Virus record (IMG/VR): IMGVR_UViG_3300037515_000591
Location: 1-64,000 of that record
Strand: one strand, 5' to 3'
Length of the DNA: 64,000 bases
Source: a virus
The notes under the pieces were generated by a model. It saw only the letters and a list, made by a program, of their open reading frames with translations, did not search any database and was not told where the DNA came from. The position numbers were made by a program, and so were the translations under genes. Positions 22,603-51,972 of the stretch are shown piece by piece. How positions within the stretch are numbered: position 1 is the stretch's first letter; every line of letters starts with the position of its first letter.

Positions 22603-22806
22603 GTGAGTGCCCCGTTGAACCTGACCGCCGAGCAACTCCGCACGATCGCCGCAGCCCTCGACGAACTCACCGAAATCACGAAGCTGCGCGAGGTGTCGTT
22701 CACGCCTTCCGGCTTCCTCGAAATCGGACTTGCCGACAACACGCTGAGCGTGACGCGGGACAGCGAGACCGGCGCGTACGTCATCGACGACCGCAACGGC
22801 GACTAA
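22603..22806 (+). CDS. hypothetical small acidic protein
   Basis: 67-aa track ORF. Confidence 0.45.
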   Translation: MSAPLNLTAEQLRTIAAALDELTEITKLREVSFTPSGFLEIGLADNTLSVTRDSETGAYVIDDRNGD

Positions 22807-24811: not shown

Positions 24812-25425
24812 TGCCTGACCTGCATGGCTGGCTGAGTCAACAGATCGACGCGGTGGAAGCCGTAGCGCGGGCCGCAGCCTCCGACGGAACGCCCGACTGG
24901 TACACCAAGAACCATTTCGCTGTAGCCGACGGGGACGGCGATGCGGTCGCGTACAACGAGGGAAACCCCACCCCGGACCAGGCCCGACACATTGCCCTGC
25001 ACGACCCTGCGGGCGTGCTGCGCCGTTGTGCCGCTGACCGGAAGATTCTCGCCGAGCACCGGCCCCACGGCGGCAAGTGGGAGCCGTACGCCTGCGAGGG
25101 GTGCGGCATGGACGGCGGGGACTGCGCCGACTGGATGGTTGAGCACGTCAACGACTGCCCGACGCTGCTCGCGCTCGCGGAGGGGTACGGGCTCACCGGC
25201 GAGCAGCGCGCCGTACTGGACCGGCCCGAGCCTGAGCGGCCTGCACCGTCCGGGCCCAGCCTTCTCCCTGACGGGCTCGCCGAGGCCATGTTCGGCAACC
25301 TGTACGCCTTCGCACTCGGTGTACGGGAGGTTGAGCGGAGCCCGGAGGTGAAGGCGATGGAGATCCTGAACCCGGAGTTGAAGAAGATCCCCGGCTACCT
25401 GCCCACCACCGAGGAGCAGCAGTGA
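24811..25425 (+). CDS. DUF6221-like protein
   Basis: ATG 8 nt after GAGGAGG; HDPAGVLRRCAADRKILAEH motif recalled from the actinobacterial DUF6221 family (not searched). Confidence 0.55.
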   Translation: MPDLHGWLSQQIDAVEAVARAAASDGTPDWYTKNHFAVADGDGDAVAYNEGNPTPDQARHIALHDPAGVLRRCAADRKILAEHRPHGGKWEPYACEGCGMDGGDCADWMVEHVNDCPTLLALAEGYGLTGEQRAVLDRPEPERPAPSGPSLLPDGLAEAMFGNLYAFALGVREVERSPEVKAMEILNPELKKIPGYLPTTEEQQ

Positions 25426-25739
25426 GGCGCCTGATCAGCAACAAGACTCTGTGGCCTCTGCACGTCGCTCAGGGCCGCGCCGAGGAGATCTCCGCGTGGG
25501 TGGCTGCGAACGGCATCGAACCCGACGACGTGTCCACCAACCATGATCTGATCGTTGAGGACGTGGCAGGCGTTCTGTCGATCCGGTGCACGGTGTACCT
25601 GCGGACGCTGGACGGCTCCAAGTACGTGGATGGCGCGTTGGATGACGCGGCGGTGGCGGAACGGCGTGTGCCGCTGCTGGTGCTGCCGCCGGATTCCTGG
25701 CCGACGTGGGCGCTCGCCGACGAAAGGCCACAGCCGTGA
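25422..25739 (+). CDS. hypothetical protein
   Basis: 105-aa track ORF, GTGA-type coupling. Confidence 0.45.
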   Translation: MRRLISNKTLWPLHVAQGRAEEISAWVAANGIEPDDVSTNHDLIVEDVAGVLSIRCTVYLRTLDGSKYVDGALDDAAVAERRVPLLVLPPDSWPTWALADERPQP

Positions 25740-25990
25740 GGCCACTGCAATGCGTGATCGGCCGCCACGCATGGACCGGCTGGCGTAAGCACGAGAAGGG
25801 ATGCGGCGACCACGGCTGCGACCGCTACCTACGCCGCTGTACTCGGTGCCCGAGGTGGCAGCGCAAGTTCCCAGGAGGGCGACCGCGCGAGTTCGAGTGC
25901 CGCTGCCTCGCCTTCGCCTGCTGCTCGGACGAATGCCGCCAAGGCCGATGCCCATCCATCCCAGCCGAGCTCAGAGAGGACACCCGATGA
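25736..25990 (+). CDS. hypothetical Cys-rich protein
   Basis: GTG 25736 in GTGA overlap; 12 Cys in 84 aa. Confidence 0.45.
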   Translation: MRPLQCVIGRHAWTGWRKHEKGCGDHGCDRYLRRCTRCPRWQRKFPGGRPREFECRCLAFACCSDECRQGRCPSIPAELREDTR

Positions 25991-26307
25991 GCCAACCACT
26001 CGACGAACAGCAGATGCGAGATGCCTGGGACACGGCTGTACAGGACTGCCTGACCGGGCACGAGAACTGCTCGTACGGCGGCATGACCCCACAGACCGGC
26101 TACTGGCTCCAAGCCGAGGGCTGCCAACTCAACCACGGTGAGAGGTGCGTGTGGTGCGGCGGCGAGGCGGAGACGGGGTTCTCCAACTGGGCCGACGACG
26201 GGTTTTCGATCTACCGGGTTCCTGCGTGTGAGGGGTGCGCGCAGCAGTGGGTGCGGTTCGATGTTCGGTGGGTGCGGAGCATCGCGGACGAGGAGCCCAC
26301 CCCGTGA
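25987..26307 (+). CDS. hypothetical Cys-rich protein
   Basis: ATG 25987 in ATGA overlap; TGHENC, CVWCGG, CEGC motifs. Confidence 0.45.
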   Translation: MSQPLDEQQMRDAWDTAVQDCLTGHENCSYGGMTPQTGYWLQAEGCQLNHGERCVWCGGEAETGFSNWADDGFSIYRVPACEGCAQQWVRFDVRWVRSIADEEPTP

Positions 26308-26738
26308 GCAACTACGCGTACGCCAGCGTCCCAGGCAACGACTCTGCGATCGTCGGCCCCGAAACCGTCAACGGCACCGGACAGGTCTACCTCCACGCCG
26401 ACGACCTCTGCTTCCTCAGCAACGAGGAAGCCCGCGAACTCGGGCGCGCGCTGATCGAGGCCGCCGACTACGCGAAGGCCGTGCAGAACGAGAAGGAGAA
26501 CTGGCCGGGCGGCGGACCGCCCAAGTCTGTACTCGACGTCGCGTGGACCGATCCGCAGTGGCGTTCCGCTGGCCCGGACGGCGACCCCGACACCGCGTGC
26601 AGCGCCTCTCACCGCCCAGACCCCCGCAGCACCAGCCCCCGGAGCGTTGCCCGTTGCACGCGGGGCTGCGGCCACTGCGGGGCGCACGCCGGGGCCGACT
26701 TCGACGGAAGGTCGTACCAGTGGGAGGACACGCGATGA
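26304..26738 (+). CDS. hypothetical protein
   Basis: GTG 26304 in GTGA overlap; 144 aa. Confidence 0.45.
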   Translation: MSNYAYASVPGNDSAIVGPETVNGTGQVYLHADDLCFLSNEEARELGRALIEAADYAKAVQNEKENWPGGGPPKSVLDVAWTDPQWRSAGPDGDPDTACSASHRPDPRSTSPRSVARCTRGCGHCGAHAGADFDGRSYQWEDTR

Positions 26739-26854
26739 CCGTCACGCTGCGACTCGTCGTCGAGACGTGCTGCGCCTGCCCCAACCAGTGGGACGCCTGG
26801 ACCGTCGACGGCCAATACCTTGCATGTCAACTATGTTCGCGAATAATGTTGTGA
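26735..26854 (+). pseudogene. 5' fragment of a small CxxC gene, truncated at an AT-rich junction
   Basis: MTVTLRLVVETCCACPNQWDAWTVDGQYL, then an abrupt drop in GC at about 26820 and a stop after 10 more codons. Confidence 0.5.
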
Positions 26855-26866
26855 CACAATGGAACT

Positions 26867-27064
26867 GTGACCGACTACAGCCAGCGACTCAAGAGGGCCC
26901 GCGCCGCCTATGACAGAGCGCGCTCCGCCTTGTTTGCAGAGATCAAGGAAGCGCTCGAAGCCGAAGACGGACCAACCGTCTCCCAGATCGCACGCGACGC
27001 CGATTTCACCCGCGAGTACATCGCCAAGATTCGCGATGGCCAGGGACCGAAGGAGACGCGATGA
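26867..27064 (+). CDS. small HTH DNA-binding protein associated with HNH cassette
   Basis: 65 aa; coiled-coil N-terminus then TVSQIARDADFTREYIAKIRDG; paralog-like to ORFs 53123 and 34817. Confidence 0.55.
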   Translation: MTDYSQRLKRARAAYDRARSALFAEIKEALEAEDGPTVSQIARDADFTREYIAKIRDGQGPKETR

Positions 27065-27624
27065 GCGGACGTGTCTGCGCAGTAGACGCATGCGAAAGGC
27101 CGCGCCATCGCCGCGACTGGTGCGTTATGCACCACAGCCGCTGGAAGCGGACGGGGAACCCGCTTGGCGCGCGAACCAGCCCCGACGTGCGGTTCTGGGC
27201 GAAGGTCGACAAGCGCGGTCCGATGTCGGAGCACCGCCCGGACCTCGGTGCATGCTGGGTGTGGACTGGCGGCAAGGATCGCCTCGGGTATGGGCACTTT
27301 TGGCTGGACCGCAGCCACGTGCTCGCCCATCGGTTCGCATACGAACTGCTGGTGGGCCCAATCGCGGGGAGTCTAGAGATGGACCACTTGTGCCGGGTTA
27401 GGCACTGCGTTAACCCGCACCACCTCGAACAGGTAACTCACCGGGTGAACACTCTGCGCGGCACGTGCCCTTCAGCGCAGGCGGCACGGGTGACCCACTG
27501 CCCACAAGGGCACGCGTACAACGAGGAGAACACCCGCATCTATCAGGGGCGACGGTACTGCCGTGAGTGCAGCCGTGAAGCGAGCCGCCGCTACAAGGCC
27601 TCTAAGCGGGCGGAGCGGGAGTGA
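27061..27624 (+). CDS. HNH endonuclease
   Basis: CWVWTGGKDRLGYGHFW...AHRFAYELLVG...EMDHLCRVRHCVNPHHLEQVTHRVN plus CPQGH...CRECS zinc ribbon. Confidence 0.85.
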   Translation: MSGRVCAVDACERPRHRRDWCVMHHSRWKRTGNPLGARTSPDVRFWAKVDKRGPMSEHRPDLGACWVWTGGKDRLGYGHFWLDRSHVLAHRFAYELLVGPIAGSLEMDHLCRVRHCVNPHHLEQVTHRVNTLRGTCPSAQAARVTHCPQGHAYNEENTRIYQGRRYCRECSREASRRYKASKRAERE

Positions 27625-27689
27625 TCACGCTGACGGAGTTCCTACGCCGGACGGGCCTGCGACTCGCACCAGACGCGGTGGTGAGCTGA
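27621..27689 (+). pseudogene. possible 3' remnant of the split gene (22 codons)
   Basis: GTG in GTGA overlap with HNH stop; VITLTEFLRRTGLRLAPDAVVS; its TGA overlaps the next ATG (TGATG). Confidence 0.35.
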
Positions 27690-28027
27690 TGAGTACCGAG
27701 TGGATGACGCCCGAGCAGATCCGGCAACACCGCGCCGCCGAGATCATGGAAGGCCCGCTCGGCCAAGCCATCTACGACGTCATCATCTGGACACGGAAGC
27801 AATGGCCACCCATGCGGTCCGATGACGAACTGTGGCTCAACCCCACCGACCACGGCGCCACCGTGCTGATCGGCGGCCGGGTGCTCGGCTACGAAGTGTG
27901 CGCCTCCGAACAGGTGCCGCCCGGCAAGGCGCTGATCTACTGCAAGGCCCTCAGCGCGTACGTGGGCGACGGGCAGATGCCGGACGGCCGGTACATGCTG
28001 GTGCGACTCCCGGAGATCACGCTGTGA
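27689..28027 (+). CDS. hypothetical protein
   Basis: ATG 27689; 112 aa. Confidence 0.5.
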   Translation: MSTEWMTPEQIRQHRAAEIMEGPLGQAIYDVIIWTRKQWPPMRSDDELWLNPTDHGATVLIGGRVLGYEVCASEQVPPGKALIYCKALSAYVGDGQMPDGRYMLVRLPEITL

Positions 28028-28326
28028 GCGACCGCATTCCACTCGACCCCGACCAGGCCATCGCCTTCGACAAGGCGACAGAGAACCGCCGCGAATACAT
28101 CCGAGCGGAAAGACTCGACCAGCTGGCCGACGGTGGCGAGTCCGTGCACTACCCGGGCTGCCCTGAATGCGGCGTGCCGGCGAAACACGTCGTGTGGTCC
28201 ACGTACGACCAGGGTCCGGGCGGTGTGCTGGAGATCGATTTGGGTACGTGCGGGCATCGGTTCACCGTGAGCCCGGTACCAGCACGCTTCGACCCAGACG
28301 GCTTCTGGTGGCACTCGGAAGACTGA
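28024..28326 (+). CDS. hypothetical zinc-ribbon-like protein
   Basis: GTG in GTGA overlap; CPECG...CGH; last gene of the island, ends 9 nt from the portal stop. Confidence 0.5.
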   Translation: MSDRIPLDPDQAIAFDKATENRREYIRAERLDQLADGGESVHYPGCPECGVPAKHVVWSTYDQGPGGVLEIDLGTCGHRFTVSPVPARFDPDGFWWHSED

Positions 28327-51101: not shown

Positions 51102-51583
51102 TCCGCGGCCTCCTCGTGCGCCAGCTTCTGCAAATCCCTGATCTGCTGGAGGACACCGGCAGCTCGGTCGTTGCTGCTGATGAAGTCAGCGATGGCAACC
51201 TCGGTGCCTTCGTGGTCGAGCCAGGAATGCTCTAGCAGGGCGCCAACGAACCTGCGGTAGTGCTCGATGACCAAGTGGCCATCTGACTTGCAGCGCTCGA
51301 ATTGCGGCCTCATGTGCTGCTCGCAGCCGTCTGCCAGCGGGAGCCCATAGCCGACCAGAAGTGCATCAACCTCGCTGTGTTCAAGATCGGGCAAGAAGTG
51401 GCTGAGGATCTGGTGGGCGTATGCCGCCGAGTCGTTCTCTTCCGTCGGCGTGAGTCCCCAACCGCCTTCCCATTCAGGGAAGAACATCGGGATCCAGCTC
51501 GAATCGATCGTCTGCGGATCGCGGCCCTCTTTGGCGCACCGGATCAGTTCGGCAGCCAGTTCTTCTCGGGTGTAGTCGCTCAC
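51098..51583 (-). CDS. hypothetical protein, paralog B
   Basis: GTG 51583 in GTGA overlap; N-terminus VSDYTREELAAELIRCAKEGRDPQTIDSSW aligns with paralog A. Confidence 0.55.
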   Translation of the reverse strand: MSDYTREELAAELIRCAKEGRDPQTIDSSWIPMFFPEWEGGWGLTPTEENDSAAYAHQILSHFLPDLEHSEVDALLVGYGLPLADGCEQHMRPQFERCKSDGHLVIEHYRRFVGALLEHSWLDHEGTEVAIADFISSNDRAAGVLQQIRDLQKLAHEEAAE

Positions 51584-51972
51584 AGTTCGTCTGCTCCATC
51601 TTGAGGGTTCGGGCAACGGCACGTTCCGTCACTGTTGAACTCGTCGCCGAATGAGCTGGCGATGCGCGTCAAGTCCTCTTCGGAGATTCCTCCGTCACGC
51701 AGCCACTGGATCTCTTCCGTGGCCGTCATGCACGGGTGCTCCCAGTACGCGGTCCAGACCGTCTTGAGCTCTTCCGGAGTCAGGGGAAGCATTTCGAGGA
51801 ACCCCACGCCATAGGCACGCACGGCGTTCTCGTCTCCGTGGGGAAGATGGCCTGCTTCGTTCATGTGGAAGTACTGGCGCAGCCAGGAGGTCTTGATGGC
51901 GAATGGATCGCTTCCTTCGTTCAACGCCTGCTTGATGGCGTCGGCGAGCTCTGCAGGAGACATGTCGGTCAC
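51580..51972 (-). CDS. hypothetical protein, paralog A
   Basis: GTG 51972 in GTGA overlap (alt ATG 51963); VTDMSPAELADAIKQALNEGSDPFAIKTSW; ends GADEL like the upstream gene. Confidence 0.55.
   Translation of the reverse strand: MTDMSPAELADAIKQALNEGSDPFAIKTSWLRQYFHMNEAGHLPHGDENAVRAYGVGFLEMLPLTPEELKTVWTAYWEHPCMTATEEIQWLRDGGISEEDLTRIASSFGDEFNSDGTCRCPNPQDGADEL

Follow-up and report, generated by a model that had tools for sequence, protein, structure and literature searches.

Homing endonuclease genes usually spare their hosts, residing in introns, inteins or intergenic sites, or splitting a gene in a manner that preserves its function. Here we describe a phage locus at which an endonuclease gene that behaves like a homing element appears to have destroyed its target. 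The locus lies within a stretch of 64,000 nucleotides (the window; positions 1 to 64,000 of IMG/VR record IMGVR_UViG_3300037515_000591, a 71.4-kb virus record with direct terminal repeats that is rated complete). It comprises a small helix-turn-helix (HTH) gene and an HNH endonuclease gene, flanked by two short open reading frames (ORFs) that correspond to the two ends of a resident gene of about 93 codons. We refer to these ORFs as the N-stump and the C-stump, and to the DNA inserted between the remnants of the resident gene as the cassette.

Several described systems resemble this arrangement in part. The HNH gene mobE in nrdA of Aeromonas phage Aeh1, mobA in T4 gene 60, and seg43 in gene 43 of phage 25 (Friedrich et al. 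2007, as reviewed in PMC2988022; PMC3045599) are likewise free-standing endonuclease genes within a conserved coding region that, by comparison with related phages, turn one gene into two ORFs. In those cases all of the coding sequence is retained and an active enzyme is reassembled from the two polypeptides, whereas here 42 of 93 codons have given way to the cassette, which destroys the gene and brings along an HTH gene and an operator-like leader of its own. The T4 endonucleases SegF, SegG, and SegE are associated with intronless homing, marker exclusion, and co-conversion of flanking DNA (Belle et al. 2002, via PMC2988022). They share with the present locus a position outside of any intron or intein, mosaic flanks and, as proposed below, a spread by double-strand-break repair on flanking homology. 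The seg genes, however, are intergenic, encode GIY-YIG enzymes, and cut at a distance in a neighboring gene, whereas our cassette sits within the gene that it presumably cleaves and whose core is removed. In actinobacteriophages, the ShiLan element is a hidden, out-of-frame HNH gene within a DNA methylase gene (PMC11855218); like the cassette as interpreted here, it is an actinophage HNH homing element in a host gene, is neither intron nor intein, and displays presence/absence polymorphism. The host frame remains open there and the methylase may stay functional, while here the frame is broken and the core deleted. Finally, HNH-3 genes occur in introns of the tape-measure gene of phage ICP1, where reverse transcription PCR shows that the exons restore the full gene (PMC10448857). 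In both cases a nuclease of the HNH_3 family interrupts a phage gene, and the same site has different occupants across genomes, but splicing occurs only in ICP1; our locus has no intron structure and nothing that could be restored. Judged from its sequence, the locus differs from these known cases in that the core of the target is deleted, a regulator with its putative operator has apparently been captured, and operon coupling is kept through the stumps. We regard it as a variant of the known free-standing homing endonuclease genes, in which the HNH protein would presumably cleave intact alleles.

The resident gene and its two stumps

Comparison of an intact 93-residue family protein (P0004) with the phage genome by tblastn yielded two matches, at 26735-26839 (E 1.1e-15) and at 27624-27686 (E 3.7e-4). 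No third match was obtained in the 71.4-kb genome, indicating that there is no second copy of the gene. The original prediction, made from the letters of the window alone, had pointed to homologs of roughly 100 residues with a C-terminal end similar to the 22-codon C-stump; such homologs are real, with a similarity far beyond chance. The related viral contig L001 contains a 94-residue gene that harbors a DGQYL motif and ends like the C-stump, and a search with this gene returned 50 proteins of about 93 residues from Streptomyces, Kitasatospora, Streptosporangium, and metagenomes. In the family alignment, the N-stump corresponds to residues 1-29 and the C-stump to residues 72-92, while residues 30-71 have no counterpart. 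Order, strand, and syntenic position of the two stumps also agree with those of the ends of intact members. A single gene encoding about 93 amino acids is thus represented by its first 29 codons in ORF 26735-26854 and by its last 21 codons in ORF 27621-27689.

Alignment to intact homologs set the breakpoints at 26820/21 and 27624-27636, and the N-stump ORF was not a full-length gene. Compared with the allele in contig L004, nucleotide identity was 88% over gene positions 1-86 and then dropped to 24-26%, with about 25% expected by chance. The same abrupt drop occurred in eight other intact alleles, and identity to L004 and L122 was 88-89% before 26820. Homology restarts at the ATC at 27624 and amounts to about 90% to intact alleles over 27636-27684. 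Base 26821 may be the synonymous third position of Leu29; if so, 802 nt (26822-27623) stand in place of codons 30-71 (42 codons, 126 nt). These 126 nt were not found anywhere in the 71.4-kb genome. The left junction is situated within the most nucleotide-conserved stretch of the gene (nt 46-102 in 109 intact alleles), and homing sites usually lie in conserved stretches.

The details of the original prediction regarding the ORFs, their overlaps, and the HTH and HNH genes were all present at the positions it gave, as was the shift to AT-rich sequence near 26820 with a stop of the frame ten codons later: the GC content is 52% in 26800-26899 and 40% in the 45-nt joint 26822-26866. The stumps retain start-stop overlaps with the neighboring genes, as the ATG at 26735 overlaps the stop codon of the upstream gene (ATGA) and the stop codon of the C-stump overlaps the ATG of a 112-residue downstream gene (TGATG). 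The GTG start codon of the C-stump comes from the end of the cassette. Within the cassette, the start of the HNH gene overlaps the stop of the HTH gene (ATGA), and the HNH stop codon TGA at 27622-27624 lies on the right junction.

Alleles lacking the HNH gene, which the original prediction had proposed to look for, were found both at the syntenic place and elsewhere. In a prophage of Streptomyces sp. MB09-02B (L004), a DUF6221 gene is followed by an intact 93-residue gene, the 112-residue gene, and a portal gene (other strand). This order matches that of the window, making L004 a syntenic empty site. The 112-residue protein is 81-88% identical in L001, L002, and L004, and its gene directly follows the intact gene in L004; no matches to it were obtained in GenBank phages. 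All 107 further family loci (27 viral, 80 genomic) were uninterrupted. In L099, the order g95, intact gene, g187 represents the cassette-free counterpart of the arrangement in L203, one of two additional contigs that carry the cassette (L202 and L203, see below). The cassette is hence polymorphic, being present in the window, L202, and L203 and absent from L004, L099, and the 107 surveyed loci.

The resident family, common in Streptomyces phages and prophages, is large and uncatalogued, with 1228 representatives of 50%-identity clusters at E ≤ 0.001. It had no match in a Pfam search and matched only PHROG 16837 (function unknown; E 4.7e-7). An AlphaFold model of an intact family protein had a predicted local distance difference test (pLDDT) value of 90.8 and displayed strands at residues 4-12, 17-23, 28-34, 37-43, and 60-63, a helix at 74-81, and a last strand at 84-92; a fold search of the PDB with this model gave a best E value of 1.9 and no neighbor. 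The replaced residues hold nearly all invariant positions and three of the six strands (28-34, 37-43, and 60-63). The resident gene is inactivated by the cassette. Among GenBank phages the N-stump gave only weak matches, one of them beside an HNH gene in Rhodococcus phage REQ3; this match falls within the C-terminus of a 160-residue gene and was judged to be due to chance.

The same cassette in a second lineage

Two contigs of the Logan assemblies of the Sequence Read Archive, L202 and L203, matched window positions 26765-27682 at 79% identity. The match covers the N-stump, the leader, the HTH gene, the gene for the 187-residue HNH protein, and the C-stump. The window, L202, and L203 have an identical GTGATC motif at the right junction, and L203 has its left junction at the codon seen in the window (DGQ/Y), with 7 additional bases. 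In L203, the N-stump has lost a nearly invariant Cys and its frame stops three bases earlier, while the C-stump heads an ORF of 86 residues, because this allele had a C-terminal extension like that of the family protein P0007. The HNH ORF of L202 (1316-1876), where no gene is on record, is intact and 83% identical to that of the window, with no frameshift.

The surroundings and the stumps of the two lineages tell a different story from the cassette. In L202 and L203, the split gene lies between homologs of the window genes at 22603 and 23119, whereas in the window it follows the DUF6221 gene. Between the window and L203, the HTH proteins are 83% and the HNH proteins 84% identical, compared to 38-64% for five other shared proteins of the gene island. 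The stumps of the window and L203 have a nucleotide identity of 64.5% over 47 shared codons, a value that ranks 32nd and 42nd of 110. In comparisons with intact alleles, stump identity was 85% for the window and L004 and 77% for L203 and L120. In a tree of 31 rows, the window stumps are placed inside a clade of intact alleles with 96/90 support, and an approximately unbiased (AU) test rejected a single clade of the stumps of split alleles (log-likelihood difference 33.1, p 0.0004). Similarly, the synonymous difference of the window stumps was 0.24 from the intact L004 allele (confidence interval, CI, 0.12-0.38) and 0.48 between the two cassette copies (CI 0.40-0.57). We conclude that divergence of the alleles most likely preceded entry of the cassette into at least one of them, and that site and deletion did not differ. 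The original prediction had proposed disruptive homing, and the occurrence of the same cassette, with near-identical junctions, in a diverged allele of another phage supports this proposal.

Leader, HTH gene and endonuclease of the cassette

The HNH protein scored 38.1 bits against Pfam HNH_3 (cut-off 24.8) and matched its PHROG with an E value of 4.9e-51; the features of the locus are listed in Table 1. Residues D108-H109 and N130, as well as the Cys/His zinc ligands, do not vary among 30 homologs. An AlphaFold2 model had a pLDDT of 93.3, and its best fold neighbors in the PDB were the His-Me finger homing endonucleases I-PpoI (E 0.011) and I-HmuI (E 0.13), although these matches were weak, with low TM-scores; the sequence itself had no match in the PDB at E ≤ 0.01. 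The gene has its own start codon, is coupled to the HTH gene, and is devoid of intein blocks. Between the window and L203, the ratio of nonsynonymous to synonymous substitutions (dN/dS) was 0.13 for the HNH gene and 0.15 for the HTH gene, with synonymous divergence (dS) of 0.7-0.8 for the cassette genes. These ratios point to purifying selection on both genes.

Table 1. Features of the split locus and associated loci (window positions unless a contig is named).
Feature	Position	Strand	Remarks
N-stump ORF	26735..26854	+	39 codons; 29 family-type residues plus 10 unrelated; stop 26852-26854
Resident-gene codons 1-29 within N-stump	26735-26820/21	+	alignment to intact alleles
10-codon tail of N-stump	26822-26851	+	outside the family
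Left junction	26821..26824	+	family homology ends at 26820; homology to HTH leaders of other phages from 26825
Cassette leader	26825..26866	+	24-bp imperfect palindrome and -10-like hexamer
Palindrome, 24 bp, imperfect	26828-26851		two AAC-N3-GTT type sites
-10-like CACAAT	26855-26860		six bases before the HTH GTG start
HTH gene, 65 residues	26867..27064	+	putative cargo or regulator; PHROG 686, E 4.7e-5
HNH_3 (His-Me finger) endonuclease gene, 187 residues	27061..27624	+	Pfam PF13392; PHROG 826
C-stump ORF	27621..27689	+	22 codons; GTG overlaps HNH stop (GTGA)
Resident-gene last 21 codons within C-stump	27624-27686	+	tblastn, query residues 72-92
Downstream resident gene, 112 residues	27689..28027	+	synteny anchor, outside the element
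Loci with another HNH gene or tandem family paralogs	L121 3149-3490; L108 3752-3850; L130 2501-2746, 2935-3180		

Relatives annotated as HNH endonucleases occur in about 780 GenBank phage records, mostly of actinophages and often in several copies per genome. At the DNA level, a search of GenBank phages retrieved only an 80-nt HNH motif in Gordonia phages. There was no HNH paralog in the window at E < 1, and no relative above 55% identity in IMG/VR or the JGI metagenomes. A word search of 5.8 billion proteins missed the L203 copy of the HNH gene (83%), which was reached only via the HTH gene. Given that no gene is on record for the L202 copy and that the word search did not return the L203 copy, absence from those indexes is not evidence of absence.

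In seven independent contexts, a copy of the leader palindrome lies some 30 nt upstream of the HTH start codon (window 26828-26851, L204 2962-2985, and the equivalent positions in L203, L205, L287, L289, and L090). Its consensus is a perfect palindrome with the arms CAACTTTGTTCG and CGAACAAAGTTG. A hexamer of the form NANNNT precedes the start by six bases in 6 of the 7 contexts; a scan of 26600-27800 for sigma-70 promoters and terminators yielded no site above threshold. The palindrome is probably the operator of an autoregulated small HTH repressor that heads such gene islands, and the leader may act as promoter, with CACAAT as putative -10 element. An 18-nt match to the leader at 51571-51588 was attributed to chance, and the leader was not shared with other nuclease genes of the same genome.

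The HTH protein has relatives of 63-85% identity and only a weak match to Pfam HTH_19; no matches to the gene were obtained in GenBank phages. It stands alone, at divergent promoters, in L204, L205/206 (S. hydrogenans), L287/288, L289/290, and L090. The leader and HTH gene of L204 are 80% identical to window positions 26825-27065 and constitute the first gene beside a divergent promoter region; this contig has no HNH gene, and an intact family gene is located 1.3 kb downstream of the HTH gene. The stand-alone contexts have a further upstream half-site, which has been removed by the left edge of the cassette in the window and L203. Leader and HTH gene would accordingly represent a unit captured from its native place at the head of gene islands: the HNH gene may first have settled just downstream of the HTH gene, and later both would have moved together. 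In T4, endonuclease genes are known to mobilize flanking DNA along with themselves (PMC2988022).

Further observations concern the resident family and its island. In L001 (2974-3258), the N-terminal 23 residues or so of the family gene are unrelated, and family homology begins at the DGQYL stretch. Because this homology starts where the window cassette begins, the DGQYL stretch is suggested to be a recurrent recombination joint. The family at times forms the C-terminal domain of proteins of 130-330 residues and is a candidate new domain family. A Cys-rich segment (CWHAEPD..PCDWDVCRQPE..AAGDRG; L203 2367-2627, L123 2777-2880, L002 2-66, and window about 25706-25990) is fused to the family C-terminus in P0007 and L203 or belongs to a separate ORF in relatives, a distribution that reflects domain shuffling inside the island. 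One Streptomyces genome contains two tandem family paralogs, and in two other viral contigs a different HNH gene lies 0.4-1.2 kb downstream of an intact family gene. From the DUF6221 region to the split gene, the window (24850-26726) contains additional genes of about 1.3 kb in total that the syntenic prophage L004 (2453-2993) lacks; at the corresponding place L001 and L002 have a gene of 249-282 residues, and the island is highly mosaic.

Mode of spread and significance

Taken together, we consider it likely, with a probability of roughly 0.78, that a free-standing homing endonuclease cassette replaced the core of the resident gene and spreads in a gene-targeted manner; the presence of the same cassette at the same spot in a diverged copy of the gene in a distant phage points to a gene-targeting mobile element and not to an intron. 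The cassette would consist of the leader with its operator-like palindrome, the small HTH gene, and the translationally coupled HNH_3 gene, with the stumps acting as homology arms. Whenever a cassette-bearing phage encounters an intact allele in another phage or in a prophage, that allele would be broken and then repaired from the cassette-bearing copy, by which the cassette would be copied in and the core deleted. Repair of this kind would give the same site and the same deletion. The cut would most likely be made by the HNH protein, within or beside the highly conserved stretch that the cassette-bearing allele has lost, although we put an HNH-driven initiation at only a little better than even odds.

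Several observations weigh against gene-targeted spread. A 7-nt indel distinguishes the left junction of the window from that of L203. The decisive AU test was carried out on the 31-row subset with only 141 columns, and in a quick tree of 111 rows, the free form of which was poorly resolved, a single clade was not rejected (p 0.70). The composite of stumps and cassette is known from only three contigs of two lineages, and no HNH relatives above 64% identity other than those in L202 and L203 were found in IMG/VR, the JGI metagenomes, GenBank phages, or the word-indexed proteins. The cassette copies are not recent, given their dS of 0.7-0.8, and no transfer was caught in the act. Finally, ordinary recombination during co-infection might suffice to move the composite, with no contribution of the HNH protein.

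This last point leads to the foremost alternative, in which plain homologous recombination among co-infecting phages and prophages alone spreads the unit of stump, cassette, and stump, and the HNH protein does not cut the intact allele but is carried along as a passenger or serves a different purpose, for instance in DNA processing or competition. The strong mosaicism of the island, with different neighbors around the family gene in L001, L002, L004, and L095, is in line with this explanation, as is the recombination joint of L001 at the same conserved DGQYL stretch, where there is no nuclease gene. However, the HNH gene is under apparent purifying selection (dN/dS 0.13 over a dS of about 0.8), the cassette occurs in the same gene at two genomic positions, and its left junction falls in the most conserved stretch of the target. 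As a site-specific nuclease process predicts all three, we regard plain recombination as unlikely. Considerably less probable still is a single ancient insertion that was inherited vertically in both lineages, with the stumps diverging as pseudogene debris. Both junctions are essentially common to the window and L203, and the synonymous difference of their stumps (0.48) equals that of the cassette, as would be expected from common descent. Yet the window stumps are closer to intact alleles (0.24) than the cassettes are to each other, they group with intact alleles in the tree, a single clade of split alleles is rejected by the AU test, the surrounding proteins are far less similar than those of the cassette, and the position of the gene differs. 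Vertical descent does not fit, because the divergences of stumps, neighbors, and cassette disagree.

The original prediction had left open whether the middle of the gene was lost on insertion or whether the intervening 800 nt or so are a spliced mobile element. The loss is borne out by the absence of codons 30-71; splicing is not, as no Rfam intron model matched and the core could not be restored. A self-splicing group I or group II intron with an HNH ORF, with the two ORFs as exons, would account for the stumps being in frame with each other once 26822-27623 is removed, and for the U before and the G at the end of the putative insert; HNH_3 genes do occur in phage introns, such as those of the ICP1 tape-measure gene (PMC10448857). 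The covariance-model check that had been suggested gave no indication of such an element: when 26300-28100 were scanned with all 4227 Rfam families (cmscan, E ≤ 10), no group I or group II intron was matched and only three unrelated chance matches were obtained. Moreover, only 45 nt of the insert are non-coding, there is no reverse transcriptase, and the leader would be a promoter/operator region common to stand-alone HTH genes. A spliced product of 50 residues would be without the 42 codons found in all 109 intact alleles, among them the invariant YxRYRxGxGxV motif and strands 3-5. We therefore give the intron almost no credence, and the same holds for functional genes-in-pieces or a split intein, in which the stump peptides would reassemble into a working protein, like the mobE-split NrdA of phage Aeh1 or "fractured genes" with split inteins. 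In favor of such reassembly, each stump has kept its open frame, its start codon, and its translational coupling, in L203 as well as in the window. Jointly, however, the stumps account for just 50 of the roughly 93 residues; intein halves are missing, as no intein motif occurs in the 10-residue tail and the C-stump begins at the junction; and the L203 N-stump lacks the nearly invariant Cys and is cut three bases shorter. Translational bypassing as in T4 gene 60 was rejected in view of a gap of 802 nt, two translated genes within it, and 42 missing codons.

The cassette thus destroys its target and yet behaves like a homing element, occurring in the same gene and at the same site in diverged alleles at different genome positions. 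If it indeed spreads in a gene-targeted manner, it may be pictured, tentatively and at somewhat less than even odds, as a natural "knock-out drive", a self-regulated HTH-HNH unit that cuts intact alleles, copies itself in, and deletes their core. With the same reservation, such a drive would be maintained by selection on the element and not on the phage, its target being a very widespread accessory gene of actinobacterial phages. The carrier phage may, moreover, benefit from losing the target gene. Annotations should label the two small ORFs as parts left over from a single gene, and the intact family merits a catalog entry, comprising about 1200 clusters at 50% identity and a confident model with no PDB neighbor while having no Pfam family. 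The locus appears to illustrate how a nuclease gene acquires a neighboring regulator and operator and carries both along, and it would provide a system in non-pathogenic Streptomyces phages for how such elements spread, are controlled, and create mosaic boundaries in actinophages.

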